A DNA stretch of 55,930 nt, filler included, from Bipalium vagum (Eukaryota), in the NCBI GenBank assembly GCA_037834085.1. It is 3 parts of 3 records of this genome, joined end to end, with 100 filler letters (N's around TTAATTAATTAA, not from the genome) between each part and the next. Parts side by side here need not be neighbours in the genome. Positions count along the whole stretch, not along the records: positions 1 to 15,811 come from JBBMKC010144599.1; 2 more parts are not named here. One strand, written 5' to 3'. The position numbers and the translations under genes were made by a program. The notes under the pieces were generated by a model. It was not told the DNA's origin. It did not search any database and saw nothing but the letters and a program-made list of their open reading frames with translations. The stretch's first letter is position 1. The number at the start of each line of letters is the position of its first letter. Positions 8,216 to 31,800 of the stretch are shown one piece after another.

Positions 8216-11200
8216 ATGAGAAATTCAAAATTCAAAAACTATTCATCTTGTTTAAATAAGAATTATTTAGTGACTACTTTAAATGTGATGTTAAATAATT
8301 TATTAAATTTTGATTTTTTTGAAAACGAATTTCATAAATGTACTTCATCAGAGTTAACATTAAATACACAGCTATATTTATGTGGTTGGTATATAAAATT
8401 TTATTATCACATTTTATTATTTATCATTAGATTTTATATATAGAACAGAACTTGCTTGTATTAGTTATGATGAATTTGAAAAACTTAGAACTATTTCTAT
8501 TTATATTAAGTCATGGTGGATATATTTTATAATAACGAAAGTAAATAGTAAACTTAAAGATAATTTTTTCAATTATCAAATTCAACAAATCGAAATGATT
8601 TTAAAGCAACATTTAGAATTTATTGAATTTCACTTAAATGAATTAAAGAAGTATTTACATCATAAAAATGTAGCAGAAGACATAATTGATAGTTTCATTT
8701 GTCAAATTAATATAATTAAAGTTAATTAAAGCTGATTTTGTTTTTATACAATTAATTATTTTTAGAAACCAATTTTTGCAGGAATAAGTGAAAAGTTAAA
8801 TTCTTATCTGGAATCATTTAAACACGAACTTTTCGGTTTCAAGAATTTATTTATTGAATTATCTCCTCCATTTCTAACTAACGTTAGTTATTATGATAAA
8901 ATTACTTTTTATTTTCAAAAATTCTAGTATGAACAATATTTGAAAAGATCAGTCCACGAAAATCTTTTAAAGAACACGTAATATATTTTTTACAAAACTA
9001 TTGATCAAAAATTAAATAGAATATAAATTATTGAACTTATTTATTTTTATTAAAAGCTTTTTTTTTATTAATTTTGTCTTTATTTTAAAACCTTTTAACT
9101 TGAAAGTTAAATTAAATATAGATTGAATATTTTTTATCAGTCAAAATTATTATAGTATTAGTTTATATTTAAAATCACGATTACCATTTGATTTATGGTC
9201 ACAGTTATGGAATATTCATAGATATTCGTCCAGTAAAATTTTTTGAATCTTGGAATTTGCAATAGGAAAGAATAAATATTTATTAAAATTTTTCAAAATC
9301 TTCAATAAATTTTTTGTTTTCTTTTATAAATTATACCACTGTTTGTTGTAGTAATATTTTATTTTAAAAATTCTTGTTTGTTAAATAAGTTTTCATTTTT
9401 GAGTAGGTGTAGAATAAATTTAATAGATAAATTAAAACGAGGAAAAATGTGAAATCATTAATTTTTTAATTGACCTATTTTTGATATCAGAAAATCAATT
9501 CATTTTACTTATCACAGAAATGAATCTAAAACTTCGGTCAACTTTTGTTTTGTGAAGCTGATAACTTCGAAAATTGTAAAAAGGAATGTTGGTAAGATCA
9601 ATGAGATGCAAGGTTGATATTTAATTTTTCATCGATAGAGCTTACCGAAATTCATGAATATTGTAATGAAAAGAAAATGAGAGAAACCATTCGAAAAATT
9701 ATGAAAGTGAAGGAAGTTAATAATTTTTATTATTTTATGAAAGGTGAATTATCATTTTTGTTAGTGTGGATCTGGTGGAGTAGATCCAGAATTAGTAAAG
9801 GAAATCCAGGAATCTTTCAGGGATTATGGAAAATTTGTTTTTTTATTTGACAGTGAGTGTAATTGAGTTGATTCTTGAAATAAAATTAAGAATCTTTGAT
9901 TTTAAAGATATTTAAATTTAAAAGAAATTTGTTTTTCCTTTTAATGAAACAGAATATCGATTTCCAATATTTATTAAGAAAATTCAATGAAAACTAAGTC
10001 TTAGTTTCAAAATAATCGATTGTATGAGATTTCGTTGATCAATCTTCCTTTTAATTTTTAGAAGAATTTTGTTGTATCAAATGTAAAAGTCAATAGTAAT
10101 TTTGTTTCTTCATTAAATGGTATTATTATCATTATATAAATTAAGCGATTCAAACCACTACCTGCACGATTTCATCATTCATGATCAGTATTGCAATGAA
10201 AGTATAATTTTCATTTTTTAATTGGAAATCAAATAAAGCCATTGCATATGCTTAGATGAGGATGATGACGATTATCGGAATAAATTTAGTGATGGAGAAA
10301 CGAAATTTATGGATGATGGAAGCTCGATCAAATCAGTAAGCGAAGAAAATACCGGAAAATCAATAGCGACCTGTCAACAAAAAATTTCTTCAGCTACTCC
10401 ACAAATTTTAAAGATTGCCGAAATAAGCAATCCAAGTAAAGCAAAGGTCTCAGTAACAGATTCATTAAAATCTCCATCGTTGAGGAAAAAGAGAACAAAA
10501 AGAAAGCTTCTTGTGACACTAATGTCAAACCTTTCCGATATTTCACCGAGTAAGCTTATGGGCATTTATTCATAACTTTTGTACCATTGAGATTTTATAG
10601 TTCCATCTCCCAATCTTGAAAAATCACCAAAAAACCAGAACTCTGTGGCAAGCGGTTTTCCTGTTCAGCAAGTCTCAAAATGTATTTATTAAGTTTATTT
10701 TATCATTATTTTTCCTATTTATTTTATTTAATTTTTATAATTATTATGTTGAATATTTTCTTATTGAATTGAATTGATTCTTTCTGTTTATTCTAGCTAA
10801 TAACGACGCTGTCCATGATAGTGACTTTGAAGATTTATCTATAGGTAACAAGTTTTCCATTTAGCTTTCTGATACTTATAAAATGTCTTTCAGTTTATCC
10901 GAAAAGAAATGTAAACAAATCATTCCAGAAGAATGTTATTTCACCAACTAGTGAGGATTGTCTATTATTGATTTTCATTTCCATTCTTTTCATATTTCAA
11001 GAGAAATTACTAATTTCTGTTCATTAATTATATCTCTGAATATGATTTTAATCATTTTTAAATGATTAATCTTTATTCTTTTTGTTTTATTTTAATATTG
11101 ATTTTTTACAATTTGTTGGTGCTTTCAGATTTGACCAAAACAAGTTTTTCGACATTCTCAGGTAATTTTATGTTCAATGTTTTTTGGTATTATTTTCTTT

Positions 11201-12231
11201 TATGAGGAGTTAGCTAAAATTTGATAGGTCTGGATGTAAAGGACGAGGCTTAGTAATTATAAGTGAAAGCTATTTCATTTTGGTTTCCGACCTGTTGAAC
11301 TGACGAGATACTGTCCATATCATTTTGATTTTCGTTTGGCGCTCCTAATTTCTCTATCTAATTTCACATGTGTCGATGAAATTTTACCCAGTGATACATA
11401 TTTAATCGCCTGCTGTTTTGAGTTACAGTATATTATTCATATTTTCCCCACGCAATTCTTTGTCGCCTCCCATAATTGTTTCTTGCCTTTGGTGAACAAC
11501 CTCTCCGATTTCTCAAAAATTAATCAATTATTATTATCCCGGGTTTCGTTCCTATTTACGCATAAATTCATCTTTACATTAAGTCTGTTGTCGGTCACCA
11601 ATATCTGGAACCAGAAATGAATAACTTTTACACTCTTTTATACGGGTGTCAGTAAAAAGTTAACTTGTTGACCTTGTGACAGTTCCAGGAAAAAAGATAA
11701 TCAAGACGATGAGGTTCTTCTTGGAACTGTTGAGATAAAAATAATTGTTTGACGTGGCAACTTTATAAAAATATAAATTGTCCAAGACTCGGTTTCAGTA
11801 AAAAGAAATTTGTTAATTGATTAAATTTATTGATTATATATTTATATTGCATCAGTGATGTTCATGAGATAGTAAATAAAAGTGACTTCAACCTCTTTTG
11901 ACCACAATAAACGCAATTTTCTGACCCTATTATACTTTCATGGTCGTCCAGCGATTCGTGGTGGTTGCGTGAGTGGTGATAACGGAAAAATTGTCACCTT
12001 CAAACACTTTTAAGATCATTTTTAGGCATGCGTACTCAGTGGTCTCTGGACGAATCCTATTTGATTTTTAAAGGAGTCCAGGAGGGACGAACTTGGGCAT
12101 CTATTAAAGCTGCTTATTTCAAAAATTCATATCGTACAAATGTCAATATTAAGGATCGGTGGCGGGTAATTCTGCAAAAGCCTACTATAATGAAGGAGTT
12201 GCAAATGTTTCATGAATCCAAGCCAAAATAA
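8216..12231 (+). CDS. TRF1/TRF2-like telomeric repeat-binding factor (helical N-terminus, S/K/P-rich hinge, C-terminal telobox Myb), ~515 aa
   Basis: Phase-consistent GT-AG model: 8216-8384, 8431-8720, 8766-8882, 8928-8977, 9491-9591, 9639-9743, 10256-10549, 10601-10681, 10797-10844, 10894-10950, 11129-11161, 12026-12231 (extra small exons near 9156-9230 and 9407-9448 possible). Last exon W-SLDE-..GV..W..I...F..RTNVNIKDRWR matches the TRF telobox (cf. RT[SA]VM[LI]KDRWR). Confidence 0.8.
11290..11800 (-). mobile_element. Possible LINE ORF2 remnant in the last intron of the TRF-like gene
   Basis: Higher GC than flanks; minus-strand QLWEATK...VKLDREIRSAKRK resembles the endonuclease-RT linker; weak. 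Confidence 0.25.
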
Positions 12232-16987: not shown

Positions 16988-19900
16988 TTAAAATCCATGT
17001 GGTTAAGTTATTACATTACCATTTTCTAAATATTTGATCTGTCTTTTATTAAATTCAAAATCATACGTTTTTATAACATATATTGATTATATCCTATTAA
17101 ATTTTTTAAAACTATTTCATGTTAACTTAAATTTTATACTTTCAACTATTTCATAATTTTATTTCTTACTTTTGTTAAGTGGATTATTAGAATTATATAA
17201 TACTAAATTCCTTTTCTTTTCAAAAGTTAGTTTATCTGAATTAATATTATTTTTGACAAATCCTTTTGTTTTAGCTGTTGTAACTATTTCTTTTTTATTA
17301 GTACTCTAAATTTTTATATGATAATCTTTTGGAGCAGGTACAACTATTTCTGTTATATAAGATCCAATCCCACAATCTTTTTCAACTTATTCTGTTAAAT
17401 CTCCTAAATTTTCTTCTTGTAATTTTTCTATTTTTCTAACCGGCTTACATTCTTCATTGTGAGATAAATTGAAAATTAGTAGGGGGATGTAGCTCAGCAG
17501 TTAGAGCAGTGCATGCGCATGTGAAGGTCCTGGGTTCGAATCCCGGTATCTTCGATTAAGTTTCAACTAACATTCATGACTACAATTTTTATTTTCACAA
17601 GAATCATCAATAAATATTGTACTATCAGTATCACAATAAATTACTCTTTCATTTATAGTTTCTAAAAGATTGTATAATCTTAATCTTGCATGAGCAGTTG
17701 TAAATAATTCTATATAAATATTTTTAGTTTTATTTGGTTTTTTCCATTCTTCTTTTATATGATATTTCATCATCCAAACTTCTTCATTTAAAATAATTGG
17801 ATTTGATTCTTTAATTTTGTCATCGAATATTATTTTACAAATATCATTATAATTATAAACATATGAATATTGTTCAAAATCATCTCTCATTCCAAAATAT
17901 CTCCATAAACTAACCAAAAAAATTTTAGATTTAAATCGTAAACCAGCATTAAATTTAATATTATCAATATCAAATATTATCAATATTTTCTGCTACAAAT
18001 TCAATTTTTGTAGTAAAATTATTATCATTTTTACAATCTTTGTTACAATGTTTATTACAACCTGGCGAACAACTTTTAGAATGATGTTTACATTTACAAC
18101 CAGAGGCTTTCAATTTATATTTCAAAAATATATTTACATAATTTTCAAATAAACCTTTTTTAGTTTTTTCAAAATGTTCTATTTCATAAATTTTTAAAAT
18201 TTTATATCCTTTTTCAATTGCTCTATCTATTTCAATTGTTGACCATGTTCAATTAAAGATCTCTCTTCATCATTCTGATTGCATTTTTATTTCTAAAATT
18301 ATAATTATAAAATTATATATTTTAAAATTTCTTTTTGCATGAATTAAGTTATATTTATTATTTATACAGATTTTGCATCTATTTGTTTTGTGATCAGAAA
18401 TTTCAATATTTGATCAACAACTGCTTTTAACATAGTGATTACAATTAATATATTTTTTTCCATACATGTTTTACATAATCTAAATAATAACTTGTGAGCA
18501 TTTCATATTTCTTGTTTATAAGGTAAGACTGGTAAATGTAAATTTCTTGGTGGTAAAAGTTTACATTTTATAACTCCAAAGTAGCAATCTTCGCTTGCAG
18601 CGGCTTTGCTGGAATTTTTATTTAAATATTCTTCTGGTGAAATATTAAATATTTTTATAGGATGTTCAATTGGATATTTATCGTATTTATTTACTGTTGG
18701 ATACAAAGATACAAAATCAGTTTTTCAGTTTTACTTTTATGATATAATTTTATAGTTTCAGTTCTTCCTCCATAAAATGCTTCTTTTGGTTTTAGTTTAG
18801 ATAATTCTGGATCAATTGTAAAATTTTTAAAATCAGGATTTTCTAAAAGCTTTTAATATTCACATTCTCATAATTCTATAAATTCTAATTTTAAATTTAT
18901 ATCTTCACAATATTTTATAATATTATTCTTTTTTTCTAAAATTTGATTATTTAAAAATTCCATTGTTTTATTTCCTTTTTTGCAAACGTCATCTTTGTTA
19001 TAACATTTTAAACAACCATGAAAATAACAACCATTAAATTCATAAATATTTTATAAGTTTGATCATAATAAAATCCGTCAACTTTATATGTTTTATTATT
19101 AGCTCTAATTGTTTTTTCTCCTCTTCTTTTTGCATGTTGAATGGAGAGCAGAGCTCGTATTTATATTATCAATTTTACTTAAATATTCTAACCAATGAAT
19201 ACATTTATAAGAATATATATTCAAAATTACTTAATCTCTGTATTCCAATGTCTTCATTGTTTATCATGGACATAAATATTTTTATACAAATTTGTGTTAT
19301 TATCATATATTGAAAAGGATTCATATTTAAAACGTTGTCATTTGAAATATTTATATTTAAAAATAAATCTCTAAAAATTAAACAACTTTTTGTTAAAACC
19401 ATAACATCTGTTAAACAATAATAAAAAACTTGAATTTGAAAATTAAAAACTTCATTCTTTTTTATTTTTTCATCATGCCATTGTTTTATTAATTTTTTTT
19501 CTTTATTATTATCGCTCATATAACTATAACCATAACATTCTAAATCCGGTTATTTACCAATGTAATTTTGATATTTTGTTGTATTAAAATAATGCGGAAA
19601 ATATCCTTTGGAAGCTTTAAAACCAAATGTTTCTGGAAAAGCTTTTAATGGACATAAAGTAAAAATTTTTAAAAAAGTAAATTTTTTATTTGCATAAAAG
19701 TTATTTTACTATCAGAACAATTTTTTTCTACTGGTAGTTTATTTTGAATCAACCAACCTAATTTTGGATGATTATCATATCTTTTTGCATAATGTGATAT
19801 AAAAGTATATTTTTAAAAATTTTGCAAAAAAATTCACAAAATGTATCAACTAAAAAATTTGAGTTTTCAATTATTATTTTTTTTTAAAATTCTATATTAT

Positions 19901-20100
19901 CTAAAATATTTTCAATTGTTAAATTTTCTAAATTTTCAGTAATAAGTTTAACATATGATATTATGTTTGTTTGTATTTTAAAATATATTTTTCTTTCTGA
20001 ATCATAAGCAATTGCATAATTCATTTCATGATAACCAGCTGTTTCTTGTGTTGCTTCAAAGTCAAAAAATATATATTTATTACTTTGTTTAAATTTAATA
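16988..20100 (-). pseudogene. Near-complete protein-primed DNA polymerase B (pPolB), type 2, Maverick element B
   Basis: Ordered motifs: ExoI YIFFDFEATQE, ExoII ISHYAKRYD, KGYFPHYFN, ExoIII YCLTDV, Vsr-like VDG..YEFNGCYFHGC, AFYGGRTE, DFVSLYP, KIFLVSLWRYFG, YCDTDS, APKDY, KTKGF, terminal PHGF*; many stops and frameshifts. Confidence 0.95.
17483..17554 (+). tRNA. tRNA-Ala(CGC)-derived pseudogene or SINE-like head inserted in pPolB
   Basis: GGGGATG/TATCTTC acceptor stem with G3:U70, D-stem GCTC/GAGC, A box TAGCTCAGCAG, T-arm CTGGG-TTCGAAT-CCCGG; anticodon stem broken, D-loop GG lost, G73. Confidence 0.8.
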
Positions 20101-23100
20101 TTACAATTCCAATAAGCAACGATACGATTACTTTTTGAATGAACTGGGAGTCATCCAGAAAGTTAATGTGAAGAAATTAAGCTAACGACCGGTAACGACA
20201 GGAATATCTTTGTTTTCTGTACATAGCACTGGGTAAATTAGAGGATGGGGGCTCTCGCTTATATTATCTCACAACGGAAAAATGATAATTCTTTCTGGAT
20301 TCATCAATATATCGAGTTATCTGGCATTCTGTTCCACCATATGGCAAACTAGAAATTTCTCAAAGAATCCAATTCCTACAGGTACTCATAGACATTTGAT
20401 TAGAAATATATCGGAGTTGTAGACCGCACCTATACCAGGGACGCTTCGTAGTATTCACTTCCCATAAGAGCATCATTCCATCTGCTAAGGTAGTTTTCTG
20501 AAACTGAAATAAAAATCTTGAACCGGAATGACCATCCGGACCACTGAAAGAGGATCGAAACTCGAACAGTTTACATTTAATATTAAAATAATTTCTCAAT
20601 CTCTAGTTTTAAATTGAATAATAATAATAATAATAATAATAATCAATTGAGTTTTAACCAGTTTTTATTATAGTTACAATTAATATTGAAAACCAGTATT
20701 AAGAGGATAAAAAACCCTGAAAATTTAAAACTTAAAAATAAAATTTCGAGGTTTCCATTCCTCCATGCACTACTACTTTTTATTAGTTTATTTTTTTCTA
20801 ATTTTGATTAAAACTTCTTGTTAATAATACTGGATCTAATATTATTTTATTTATTTCATTATATATATTTATATTTTAATATAATTATTTGAAAAAATTG
20901 ATCATTTAGATTTTTTGTGACCCAAAAATTCTATAATTATTTATTTTTAAAAATTGTGAGTATGGAGGGAAGACAAATGTTGAATGTATGTATTGACAAA
21001 AGAGGCGACCACGCTAGTTATTAATTGTCAAATAATAAGTGTTTGTATGATGACTAATACACTTTTTTGTTGAAATCTCGTTTTATAATATTGTAGTACC
21101 TTTTTGTGGATAAGTATTTTTTGGAGAAAAAGCAATTTCCATTTTTCAAAGATGAAAATAGATTCGAAGTAGTTAAATTGCCTCTAAATATTTGAAAATC
21201 CATTCTGAAAAGAAAATTCGGTTTCTTCAAAAATTTCGCTCATTTTAGGAAATATTCTGCTAATTATAATAATAATAATAATAATCGTTTATTTCAGTTT
21301 GCTATATTATTTTATTAACTTTAAATAAAAGACGAAATTTTCATTTTCTCAGTTTTTGTAAATTTACAAAATTATTATTTTAATGAAAAACTATTATTTA
21401 TTTTAAACATTTATTTGTTAATTTTTAAAAAATTTTTATTAAAATACTTCAATAAATATTAAAAAAAACTACTTAATTAATTTTAAAAATATCAAGTATT
21501 TCTAGCAAGTTGATTACCAGAGATAATGAGCGCTAGTAGACACTTTGCCATGGTGAAGGGCTATATTTTGTTGATATATCTGTATATGACTGAACGTCAC
21601 AGAAAATCTGATCTAATAACACTGATAGTTATATGCTACTATCTAGCGAATGCACAGATTGTTAGTTTTGACTGAAAATTAAATCACGGAAATAATTGAT
21701 GCGACAGTCAACAGTTGAAATATTAATGATTGGATTTTCTTTAAAAATGTAAGCCAGAATCATGTAAATTATTTTCTTTGGTTTTAGTGTATTTTTCTTC
21801 TTCCCCTTATTTATTTTTGTTAGAAAATCTCAAGAAATCTGGAAATTATAAAAAATATAAATTATTGAAAAAAATGTAACTGAAGAAAAGAAGAAAATTA
21901 TGAAAACTTTATTTATGTTAATTTTAAAAATATAATCGTATAAAAAGGAATTAAGGAGAGAAATATTTAAAACCAAAAATTTTCATCGAATTAAATGAGA
22001 AAAAATAACGCTTATTTTTTAATAATGTTGGGTTAGACAAGGGAACATTCCTTTTAACCCTCTTAAATTATCTTTTGAAGACCGCTAAAGGTCTAGAATA
22101 TTGATAATAATTATAAATTATTTATTGAGTCTATAATACATTTGTGTCCTCAATGGACTGGCACAAAAAAGAGAACGAATAAAATTTGTACCTTTTTAAA
22201 TATTTATCGGATGAATTTTTCAGAAGAATTTATTGAAAAAAATTTGTCAAAAGACGTTATCGGAAAATTTTGTCCGAGGAATTTATCAGAAAACAGTCGT
22301 GGGAAGAAAGAGATTTAATTTGCTGAGTATTTGTTATGCCCAATTTTATGCAACAGGAGCCAACGATAAGTGAACAAGATTAGGATCATTAAACGATCAT
22401 TGGACCCATCGTCTTCTTGATTGGTGAGATCTGTATGCATTGTTTTTTTCTTTTTTGTTTGTTTATAATTAATATTAGCCCTATTAATTAATATTTTTTT
22501 GTTAAGTATTTTGACTAAACTTTTACTGATGCGTATATTATTGATAATTTGATTGTTTTGCTTTTCAGTATTATTTTATTGATTCTGACTATTTGAAACA
22601 TTTCACCTTTTGCTATTGTGTAATTACTTTTGTGTATTTGTGATTAAAGGAATTAAATTTTATTGTAGTCGTTTGATTCAATTATTGTGAAAACGTTATT
22701 GACAGAAGTGATAGGGCCAGTAAAGTTACGAGCTAAGGTTATGAATAGTTTCATAGTAATATAAAAGCGTAACAATAAAGATAGTGTATCTTTGATTTTG
22801 TTTAGTTATATTTATACTAGTCTTGATTTAGAGTTTGAGTCTGTGATCAAGTTGCTCAAATTAATTACGTACCGAAGAAGAGAGTTTCTAAAAGGCGACT
22901 GATTGGAAGAAACGAGATCAACAAACATAAAGCAGAAACTTCACTATTAACAAATAAAAAATTAGAAACAATATCATTTAGGATTTATCCCGATATTACC
23001 TAATTAAAAACTTAATCAACAAATTGCGTGATAGTTTTGTTAAAATAAATTTTTTGATATTTATTTTTGCTTTTATGAAGACGAAAGTAAAAATTTTAAT

Positions 23101-26714: not shown

Positions 26715-27776
26715 TCACCGGAACCGTTGCATAGACATCATTGTGTTCATTCCGCGCGCGTTCTCGTTGATGAACTTACCGATCGAAATGAAATTGAATT
26801 TGATCAATAAGCCCAATATTGCCATCAGGATCTGAAATTGGTAAAAAGAAATTGATAATGGTGTTTGAATTTTTCAATATAAAATATCATCGATCCGTCG
26901 TGAAAAAAAACTGGGTGGGGCAAATGACTCACTTCGATAACGATCACGAGTATCACGACGGAAAATAAGACGGGGCTGACGCTGGACGTCAAAATCGGAA
27001 AACATCCGTGATCCTAAAACGATAAATTTATTAATCGATAAAAACGTGAATCAATTTTTAAGAAGATTTACTACTATATCGATTCCCGTTGTGTTCAATA
27101 GCTTGTTATTGCAGGCACCAAAGGCTCGACAGCACGATTTTGGAAGGGCTTTGAAGTCGTCACTGTATTCTAGGTAGCTGGTTTTGCCGCAGCAACTCAA
27201 CTGTAGGTGTCGGAAATCAATGATAAATAGAGATTAATCAAATCAAAACAGCCCCACAGAATATTGCAAAATGTCCATATATCGCACGAATCTTGTTCCC
27301 ATGTACTCCTTCTCGTCGACCAGGGCATCCGTCAGCAGTTCATCGACACTTTTGACCAGCTAATGAAATGTCTCGTAAAAAACCAATCTGTTCTATATAA
27401 ATGTCAAATCTCACAGTTTTCCTGAAAATGCTGCCCACTACCAATGCGCTGATTTGCAGAACAAGGAACATCAGGACAAGAACAGAAAATGCTTTGAGAA
27501 ATTTTGTGTTTCTTTTCCTTAAACCATGGAAGCTCAATGAAGAGTATGTGATGATGAATAGACCAATTGTTAGTAATATGGAGCTTAATATGAATATTGA
27601 ACTGGTAATGGTAAAGTTGACCAACCAAAGGGTCACAAGAAAGTATGATGATAATATTATCATAAACAATCCGATAACCTTAATATATTTATTAATAATA
27701 ATATACAGGATGTGTTAATACTTACCAAGTTTATGATATTGAATGCACCTAAAGCTATTTTTAAAAAATTCCCCAT
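26715..27776 (-). CDS. Tetraspanin (~245 aa, 6 exons)
   Basis: Exons 27776-27726, 27678-27415, 27359-27258, 27200-27075, 27013-26933, 26831-26715, all phase 0 GT-AG; four TM segments; EC2 with LQYSLSCCG, LPKSCC and HGC. An alternative 3' end via a GTAAG donor at ~26780 is possible. Confidence 0.93.
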
Positions 27777-28855: not shown

Positions 28856-31800
28856 ATGCCACGAAGAATCATTTTTGAAAAACCAATGTACTTGAGAGTT
28901 CTATTAGTTTTATCAGTATTCTATTTTACCTTCGTAACATGTCTGATCCCAAGGATTTGTAGTGCTAATGCCACTCTTGAAGTGGCAATTTGTTGTCCAC
29001 AATTACAAAGTAAGACTTATAGGGTTGTTAATGTTTTTTACTTAGAGAATTGCTTTTTCATTGATCAGATTTCTCAGGAGTCTGTGGAGGAATAGAAAGA
29101 GGAACTTGTGAACAAATAAAATCACAAAGAGATCATAAGTCACTGAATTATGTTGTTAATACAACGTTGGAAGACGATGACAGACTCAACTGGCCAAAGA
29201 GATTCTTTCATTTTATGTGTTCCTGCAAAAAGAATTTCGCTGGTATTGGTTGTGAGACTTGTAAATTTGGATGGTATGGTGAAAAATGTGGTGATAGATT
29301 ATCAAGAACGAGGAAAAATATTGTGAAGTTGACTGATTATGAAAAATTCATCTTTAGATCGGTTCTCAATATCAGTAAATATCAATTGTCGGAATATATG
29401 ATTTTAAATTCGACTTCTCATTCTCATTGTGATCCTGTGAATCCGGAAACGATTCAATTAATCAATGCATCAATATATGACACAATGGTGTATTTGCATT
29501 TTTATTCCTCTAGAAGTACCATATCTAAAGATGAAATGGAATCATGTACTACATCTGATAATATACTTAATTTTGCTCACAAGGTAGGAAGGGTTCATTC
29601 TTTTTCATTTATACTTTGTTTCATTTATTTATATTAAACCTTTTTATAATAATAACACATCTGGCATTCAACAACTTGTTCAATTCTTTGATGATTCTAG
29701 GATTCTGTGTACATATATCAATATTTTAGGGCCCAGCCTTTTTCACTTGGCATCGTTATTATTTGTTAATGTTTGAAGATTTGCTGGGAAAAATCGCTAT
29801 TGAAAAATTTCAATATTTTAACTTCAGCCTACCTTATTGGGACTGGATCAATGAAACTTCATGTACAATTTGTGTCGATGATTTGATGGGGTCAATACCT
29901 ATTAGTGTTGAAAAGTCAGGAATTGGACTTGACAATTGGATCCCTATCTGCCCTCAGATTTCACAAGATTTTGATTGTCATATTTGCGATCCGGGTTTAC
30001 AACAAACTTCATTATGGAGGGAATATTCACATACAGTAAAAAGACTGCCGCTACAGGAGGAAGTAGATGAGCTACTAATAATAAATGAATATGATTCTGA
30101 ACCTTTCAATTCGGAAACATACAGCCGAAAAAGCTTTAGAAATTTAGCTGAAGGATTTGTTCGAATGAATCCGAAAATCAATGATATAAAGATTAAACAG
30201 TTTTTTTCAAATGTGCCTAATGAAAATGTCTTTATGCATAATATGGTTTATTTTGATACATAATTTAATTAATAATTGATTAACTTGGTAGGTTCACTCG
30301 TTTATCAATGGAACTTGGTTGGATCCAACGACCAGTCCAAATGATCCCTTGTTTTTATTACATCATACCTTTATGGATAAAATATTAGAAATGTGGATAC
30401 TTAAGAATCCCCAAACCACGGTAAAATTATATTAATTCTACCACGAATCTCATGGTTCTTTCTACAAGGTTTATTAGAGTTTCAAGCGAAAATACTGAAT
30501 ACTTAACAAAAATATCAATATTGGACATTAATCTTTATTTCGCGGCAATATCTAAAATTAACGAAATATAAAACTTAAAAAAAATAATAATGACCGAATT
30601 AAAAATAAAAATAGTTTTTGGATTTGAGAAAAACATTTTAAGAATTTTATTATTTTACTTCTTTTCAATTGGAAATGGTCACAAAAAGTTTTTCAGACCC
30701 AAATGAATTAAAAAATTTTATCTGAAGAAATAAGAGAACATTTATTAAAACACAAAACATTACATTTAATATGAAAATTGAATAACTTGTGCGAAAAAGG
30801 TTAACTTCTACCTGGCCAGCCAACTCAGCAAGTAGTTTCACCAGATCACTTCGAAAGAAAGTGATGTTGTGAGTTTGGTGGAATTACTAGGGAATTACCA
30901 GTGGAATTACTGTGCACTGGGAACTTGTTCCGGATGGTCGAGCTATCGATAGTAAACTTTATGCTGAACAACTACAGCTAGTTCATGATACTTTGAGCAC
31001 TCGTTACCAAGCATTGTTGAGTCGCTGTAGAGCACTCCTACAGCATAATAATGCTCCAGCTCATACATCACGAATAGTGAAGCGGAAAATTCAGGAACTG
31101 CAAGGCAACGAAGTCATCTCCTACCCAGCGTATATCGCGGATCTCGCTCCTTCTAATTATCATATGTTTCGCGCTCTCTCACATTTTTTACGAGTGAGAC
31201 GCTTTGGTTCAGAGGAAAAGCTCAAAAATGGATTTGCCAAATTCTTCAAAAAACCTGATTGGTATCGCCATGGAATTGAGCAATTTGCAGAAACATGGCG
31301 TCGGGTTATAGAAACAGATAGACTATATTTTGAGGATTAATGTGATCTGTGTTAAGCAAATTTTGTAAATTAAGTATTTGCTTAAAAAGAAAAAAAACCT
31401 GATCCCGTGATAATGATGTTGAAGTGTGTAAGTAAAAGTGGATTTAACGATTTAAATAATATATAAAGTTCATTTAATTTTGGAACATTCACAATTAATT
31501 GAGGCTAGAAATTTATAATGTGCTTTAATTTGAAATTTTGCAGAAATAGTGAAAATATAGTTTGTTGTCGAGATTTGAGCCCAATGGGGGGGGGAGTCAA
31601 GGATGAAAATATTTTTATTAAAAGAGATACCACAAAGTATTTTTACGGTGATATCTTTGAGAAATTAAAAGGTACCAATGTCGTATTTTCCAAAGATTGC
31701 AATTGTGGCAAATTGGAACTGATTATCAAAAAATAAAGTGTATTCAAATTGTAAGACTGAAATTGACAATAACAGAAACTTGGTTTGTGAGATGAGTTTA

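Follow-up and report, generated by a model that had tools for sequence, protein, structure and literature searches.

Does the flatworm Bipalium vagum possess a counterpart of the telomere-binding proteins TRF1 and TRF2? The question is raised by a split gene on the + strand at positions 8216 to 12231 of a 55,930-nucleotide window of assembly GCA_037834085.1. The window joins three parts of the genome and the gene lies in the first of these (contig G000:C144599, approximately 25% GC). The initial annotation presented the gene as encoding a candidate double-stranded telomere-binding protein. The Myb domain keeps the residues that read TTAGGG, and a telomeric role remains the best reading. Judging from the sequence, we estimate a probability of about 0.7 that the gene encodes a telobox-Myb protein that would bind duplex TTAGGG at telomeres and is likely the flatworm counterpart of TRF1/TRF2.

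Telobox proteins are already known; what is likely to be new is a candidate flatworm counterpart of TRF. The literature that we searched, which covers few subscription papers, contains no description of a flatworm TRF or of this Myb family. According to Yin et al. 2016 (PMC5032016), no planarian telomeric protein except a POT1 homologue could be predicted, and the main text and accession table of a survey of animal shelterin (PMC8653790) include no flatworm.

The telobox Myb and its gene

The last exon encodes the terminal Myb that was first annotated, which is of the telobox class. It matches Pfam PF00249 (E 3.7e-6), its helix 3 contains KDRWR, and 13 of its 14 matches in the Protein Data Bank (PDB) are Terfa, TRF2 or TRF1. 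Human TRF1 contacts bases through Arg380, Lys421, Asp422 and Arg425 (PMC2377444, Table 3) and all four are matched in the PDB alignments of the window Myb; a homologue described below has Lys in place of Arg380. When a profile of flatworm Mybs was compared with the PDB, the top 22 of 25 matches were telomeric Mybs (best E 1e-7), and plant TBP1 Mybs (E 0.008-0.08) trailed animal TRF Mybs by approximately five orders of magnitude.

Section 5 of the survey gives the TRF layout as an N-terminal helical domain, a long hinge and a single terminal Myb, and defines a TRF by a Myb at the C-terminus whose helix 3 reads K-D-R/K-W/Y-R, which the window protein has. The protein resembles vertebrate TRF1/TRF2 and the single TRF2-like invertebrate TRF (Myler et al. 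2021, PMC8653790) in its helical N-terminus, long hinge and terminal K-D-R-W-R Myb, and shares with them the four base-reading residues and a length of approximately 500 aa. It differs from them in several respects: no TRFH domain was detected, the Myb is only about 35-40% identical and lies in a single exon, a conserved extension follows helix 3, and there is no iDDR-like Trp/acidic patch. The turn between helices 1 and 2 is indeed two residues shorter than in Terfa, as previously noted, and that between helices 2 and 3 is one residue longer.

The best gene model, with splice sites placed by hand, comprises 13 exons encoding 527 aa. All 12 introns are GT-AG and seven measure 45-51 nt. The features are as follows ('homologue' refers to the gene on contig G000:C49956 described in the next section).

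8216..12231, +: whole gene, 13 exons, 527 aa, with a helical N-terminal domain, a low-complexity hinge and a C-terminal telobox Myb plus extension
8216..8384, +: exon 1 (aa 1-56), followed by a phase-1 intron that has the same aligned position in the homologue
8431..8720, +: exon 2 (aa 57-153); most conserved piece of the N-terminal domain, aligning weakly with the four-helix bundle predicted for fluke relatives
8766..8882, +: exon 3 (aa 154-192); LSPPFL motif at 8859-8876, resembling the end of animal TRFH domains
8928..8977, +: exon 4; from the gene model, alone not significant against the homologue
9518..9591, +: exon 5; required for phase, alone not significant against the homologue
9639..9715, +: exon 6, for which a donor after 9706 is an alternative; the next intron, of phase 0, is at most one codon from a homologue intron
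9765..9852, +: exon 7; completes the conserved helical region, at aa 288; the next intron, of phase 1, has the same aligned position in the homologue
10256..10549, +: exon 8; start of the hinge, first acidic and then rich in S/P/K, with a basic patch resembling a nuclear localisation signal, RKKRTKRK, at 10483-10506
10601..10681, +: exon 9; hinge, phase 1-1
10797..10844, +: exon 10; phase 1-1 hinge exon that includes a short acidic stretch
10894..10950, +: exon 11; hinge, phase 1-1
11129..11161, +: exon 12; last hinge exon, again phase 1-1
12026..12231, +: exon 13; telobox Myb with the arm Arg at 12031 and KDRWR at 12151-12165, C-terminal extension (predicted fourth helix) and stop

Much of the initial description survives in this model. 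RKKRTKRK (10483), GVQEGRTW (12073), NVNIKDRWR (12139), the ATG (8216) and the stop codon (12229-12231) are all where they had been placed, and the acidic then S/P/K-rich hinge is present. The exons join in frame as proposed, but the best model has 13 rather than 12. Since hinge exons 8-12 are all phase 1-1 and each is a multiple of three nucleotides long, any one of them can be skipped in frame and 12-exon versions exist; on sequence grounds the exact exon number is uncertain. A 14-exon version adding 10062-10119 was rejected because it breaks the frame, in trials that also included off-by-one borders. The helical N-terminal block covers approximately 288 aa instead of 275, and the extension after the Myb, put at about 18 aa, amounts to 21 residues after KDRWR. 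Translation may in fact begin at a second ATG in exon 1, at 8288 (Met25), which is at most four codons from where the homologue starts.

A homologue in the same assembly

Are the 5' exons part of the same gene as the Myb exon? The Myb exon matches a 52%-identical exon on contig G000:C49956. At 3.6 kb upstream of this second Myb lies a 160-codon exon, and its own best non-self match in the 441-Mb assembly is window exons 2-3 (E 1.6e-4). The homologue (L005:5232-9141) can be modelled as seven exons with an open frame of 445 aa. Between the joined N-terminal regions of the two genes 64 of 231 positions are identical, and their local alignment score is 150, compared with a mean of 44 and a maximum of 80 in 1000 shuffles (z 13.9). 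Compared singly, only exon 2 reaches significance (0/500 shuffles).

Four introns are shared: after residue 56 (phase 1), near residue 259 (phase 0, one codon off), after residue 288 (phase 1) and, again in phase 1, four codons before the first Trp of the Myb. The intron near residue 233 differs in phase between the two genes, three window introns are missing from the homologue, and the LSPPFL motif is absent from it. Because the homologue shares the Myb, the N-terminal domain and four intron positions, the 5' exons are tied to the Myb exon, and their proposed membership of one gene holds. The phase-1 acceptor of exon 13 is kept in the homologue and also in L003, a partial copy of the Myb exon (91-97% identical, with three amino-acid changes in 37 codons).

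Other traces of the family were also recorded. The homologue carries an RKKRT stretch in a different frame near L005:8440. A 73-codon frame resembling exon 2 (C..LD.YERLR) occurs at L010:1082-1300 (G000:C224352; E 0.97 at 1115-1300), with no Myb linked to it on its 2-kb contig. Word-index searches for homologues with exon 2 and with the Myb exon gave no matches. The contigs of run X1 leave the homologue locus uncovered, for which a filter may be responsible.

The relationship between the two genes depends on the composition of the assembly. It contains three open COX1 sequences (L037, L038 and L039), 74-79% identical to one another; in L037, all five AAA codons align to mammalian Asn, which is the echinoderm/flatworm code. 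At the protein level L038 is 81% identical to L037, and L039 68-71%. Several single-copy genes occur as diverged pairs (L045/L046, L050/L051 and L055/L063), and contig C49956 has a GC content of 0.30 compared with 0.25-0.26. On the simplest reading the assembly probably represents two co-assembled flatworms and a third animal, the alternative being an old genome duplication. We therefore lean towards the homologue being the orthologue from the second species, which fits the rule of one TRF per invertebrate given in the survey (PMC8653790). A paralogue, that is, a second TRF in one invertebrate, is not claimed here in view of the divergent COX1 copies and the paired single-copy genes. A mixed or duplicated assembly bears on all copy-number claims from this genome.

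Flatworm relatives and the origin of the N-terminal domain

An unindexed protein search with the Myb exons of the window gene and the homologue returned 111 proteins, of which 17, judged by eye, have an extension after helix 3 like that of the window gene. Eight of these were looked up and three more were named: all come from flukes or tapeworms and are annotated as hypothetical, Myb-like or paramyosin (for example, KAK4469026.1 from Schistosoma mekongi, KAH9285637.1 from Echinococcus granulosus and CAH8843591.1 from Trichobilharzia szidati). The public label 'paramyosin' on P0112-P0114 and P0121, family members from Echinococcus and Schistosoma japonicum, is apparently wrong. A 38-row Myb tree places the window gene, the homologue and 13 fluke and tapeworm Mybs on one side of a branch with support 96/94, using 70 columns and 23 outgroups hand-chosen from 83; in a quick tree of 98 rows the same grouping obtains 87, unstarred.

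These proteins share the layout of the window gene, its Myb clade and the extension after KDRWR. They differ in having longer turns between helices 1 and 2, a Myb identity of at most 39% and only borderline N-terminal similarity, and they are uncharacterised. In four settings the N-terminal comparison with flukes gave E 0.012, 0.13, 0.00077 and 0.069; adding L010 moves the value from 0.069 to 0.00077, which is thus the optimistic one, and a reversed control scored 16.5 against 17.4 for the real sequence. An LR.I..W[IL]Y-like stretch was aligned at one place in all four comparisons. Fluke and tapeworm N-termini are not significantly similar to each other (E 0.31-0.44).

The AlphaFold model of the fluke homologue P0122 shows helices over residues 11-159, mostly with pLDDT 80-90, and an extra helix at 427-442, after the Myb. 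A fourth helix after a telobox Myb is also found in the plant TRFL/NgTRF1 Myb-extension proteins (PMC2377444). In the plant proteins a long loop that contacts DNA precedes helix 4, whereas the flatworm extension comes almost directly after helix 3, where the PDB alignments of the flatworm profile to plant proteins end. As there is no significant sequence match to plant TRFL proteins over the extension, the fourth helix is likely to be convergent.

Is the N-terminal domain a diverged TRFH, as initially annotated? The searches did not establish this identity. Pfam PF08558 (TRFH) gave nothing over its cut-off in the assembly, in 25/25 flatworm relatives or in separate scans of exons 1, 2 and 3. 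The flatworm profile matched no TRFH-only crystal in the PDB at E<=10, and exon 3 alone had no PDB match. The structural comparison initially suggested was made with the fluke homologue: Foldseek with the whole 469-aa model found no match at E<=0.001, and fold searches returned generic four-helix or helical bundles with no TRFH entry among the top 50 listed, a result that neither identifies TRFH nor excludes it. The AlphaFold model of the homologue's 160-aa exon (pLDDT 43) was too poor for a meaningful fold search.

A telomeric role would be the same if the N-terminus were nevertheless a true, shortened and diverged TRFH (aa ~50-200, ending in LSPPFL) followed by a helical module (aa 205-288). 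This is the earlier reader's interpretation and a sub-case of the best explanation, and in this specific form it falls somewhat short of probable. A weak hint in its favour comes from hhalign, which matched the window gene plus homologue to a set of 13 TRFH-type sequences from animals (E 0.021, score 21.5) on the TRFH C-terminal PFL motif; 0/60 column shuffles scored as high and the reversed control scored 10.5. The same resemblance had a hidden Markov model score of 8.9 (3/200 shuffles), and the F-L of the L..PFL motif is invariant in 10/10 animal TRF-type proteins. YLCDF..SYDEF also resembles the TRFH start by eye, unscored. A combination of TRFH with a separate dimerisation domain has a precedent in fission yeast Taz1 (figure legend in PMC11032478). 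The Pfam and PDB profile searches above did not detect a TRFH, and the fluke sequences scored 17.0 against the TRFH profile, below their reversed control (19.7). We put the odds that the N-terminal domain derives from TRFH at about even.

Taz1 and the Caenorhabditis elegans proteins TEBP-1/2 offer a parallel, in that they act in a TRF-like way but dimerise through a module that is not the canonical TRFH interface (PMC11032478). TEBPs have three Myb-containing domains and the window gene only one, and none of our searches gave a sequence match to Taz1 or TEBP. A set of tunicate-type proteins, P0027 (Clavelina), P0082 (Phallusia), P0003, P0006, P0038 and P0070, combines a TRFH-like N-terminus (hhalign E 0.001 to the fish TRFH set) with tandem Mybs, in contrast with the survey, which found no TRF in tunicates (PMC8653790).

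The probable telomeric function and its rivals

In the assembly, four tandem TTAGGG units have 73 matches on 15 contigs, some at contig ends (control 0). A search for shelterin partners (POT1, TPP1, TIN2 and RAP1) covered POT1, and a member of this family is present (E 2.6e-17). POT1 occurs in two copies, L042 and L043 (G000:C216913 and C211860), 89% identical in DNA. A fish TRF query found only the homologue's Myb (E 0.12), and telobox helix 3 was absent from the 25 other Myb loci inspected (of 30), in a family search that is incomplete, having missed both known telobox loci. From these two results, no better TRF candidate has been seen.

If the protein does act at telomeres, the conserved residues suggest a TRF1-like reading of the repeat, by helix 3 (Lys-Asp-Arg-Trp-Arg) in the major groove and by the arm Arg in the minor groove. 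The conserved extension may fold into a fourth helix, packed against the Myb and stabilising it, by analogy with plant NgTRF1. Dimerisation is called a hallmark in PMC11032478, which also shows non-TRFH dimerisation modules; from the layout, the all-helical N-terminal domain (aa ~25-288, with a predicted four-helix-bundle core) would dimerise the protein and dock partners, allowing two Myb domains to grip the repeat. The hinge would be disordered and carry a nuclear import signal, for which the RKKRTKRK patch is the candidate.

A number of observations tell against a TRF counterpart. The top PDB match of exon 13 is not a TRF, but Trichomonas MYB21 (E 2.6e-7), and in raw identity the window Myb is closer to unnamed non-flatworm proteins (52% for P0032) than to the best flatworm protein (39%). 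The 60 residues before the Myb contain no Trp-containing acidic iDDR-like patch (5 acidic and 6 basic residues, depending on the hinge model), a patch likewise absent in molluscs (PMC8653790). The incomplete Myb family search, the hand-chosen outgroups of the tree and its lower support in the quick version, the fluke N-terminal values with their reversed control, and the lack of TRFH matches in Pfam and the PDB count in the same direction, as do exons 1 and 3-7, none of which is singly significant against the homologue. Finally, since the assembly looks mixed, the TTAGGG arrays and POT1 need not come from the organism that carries the window gene.

Some telobox proteins, such as yeast Tbf1/Teb1 and the plant TRB/TRFL proteins, bind interstitial TTAGGG-like sites. 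The window gene could accordingly encode a transcription or chromatin factor acting on such sites, with no main role at chromosome ends. The lack of a demonstrable TRFH, the plant TBP1 Mybs among the PDB matches and the fourth helix, as in plant TRFL proteins (PMC2377444), would agree with this. We nevertheless consider it unlikely, because animal TRF Mybs far outscore the plant ones and no other TRF candidate was seen despite the TTAGGG arrays and POT1. It is far less credible still that the gene is orthologous to TERB1, which anchors telomeres in meiosis and combines ARM repeats with a terminal Myb: there is no ARM family match in exons 1-3 or in 25/25 flatworm relatives, the predicted fold is an up-down bundle and not a solenoid, and PDB 1x58, which we take to be the mouse TERB1 Myb, is not among the matches at E<=10. 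In favour of TERB1 are its ancient presence among animals and its C-terminal telobox-like Myb (PMC7227075).

It might also be argued that the 5' exons lie outside the Myb gene or that the model was stitched by chance in AT-rich DNA. Apart from the singly insignificant exons, this objection can point to the junctions: reads of the only listed run, the DNA-like X1, cross the introns unspliced, and the junctions therefore rest on homology. The longest frame that could be stitched with at most 12 introns was, however, 606 aa at the locus, compared with 109 aa on the reverse strand, 98-411 aa in 20/20 other 4-kb strand-stretches (411 being a tyrosinase gene) and 140-298 aa in 20/20 shuffles, in a control whose splice rule was drafted after these introns were known and so favours the locus. 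With the same N-terminal domain upstream of a homologous Myb on another contig and four common introns, such an artefact is highly improbable and, as far as its sequence can tell, the gene is real.

The remainder of the window contains unrelated features. The tyrosinase gene (29065-30263, +) has an EGF-like region and its closest PDB match is human TYRP1. A tetraspanin exon lies at 27340-27714 (-; PF00335, E 5e-6). Fragments of a protein-primed DNA polymerase B at 17567-20150 (-; PF03175, E 9e-6 at 18503-18724) are probably a decayed Polinton-like element, and remnants of mariner-type transposases occur elsewhere (for example, 30891-31340).

Planarians are among the main models of how immortal stem cells maintain their telomeres, and the gene, with its fluke and tapeworm relatives, offers a specific candidate for the duplex-binding protein that has been missing. 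The fluke and tapeworm family would also correct the 'paramyosin' annotation of parasite genes. Should the N-terminal domain prove not to be a TRFH, it would represent a new dimerisation solution for a telomere protein in an animal with canonical TTAGGG repeats. More speculatively, and at present doubtfully, the flatworm phylum, both planarian-like and parasitic, might protect its telomeres with its own TRF replacement, combining a telobox Myb, a convergent fourth helix and a non-TRFH four-helix-bundle dimeriser. If true, this would explain why homology searches have failed to find a flatworm TRF.
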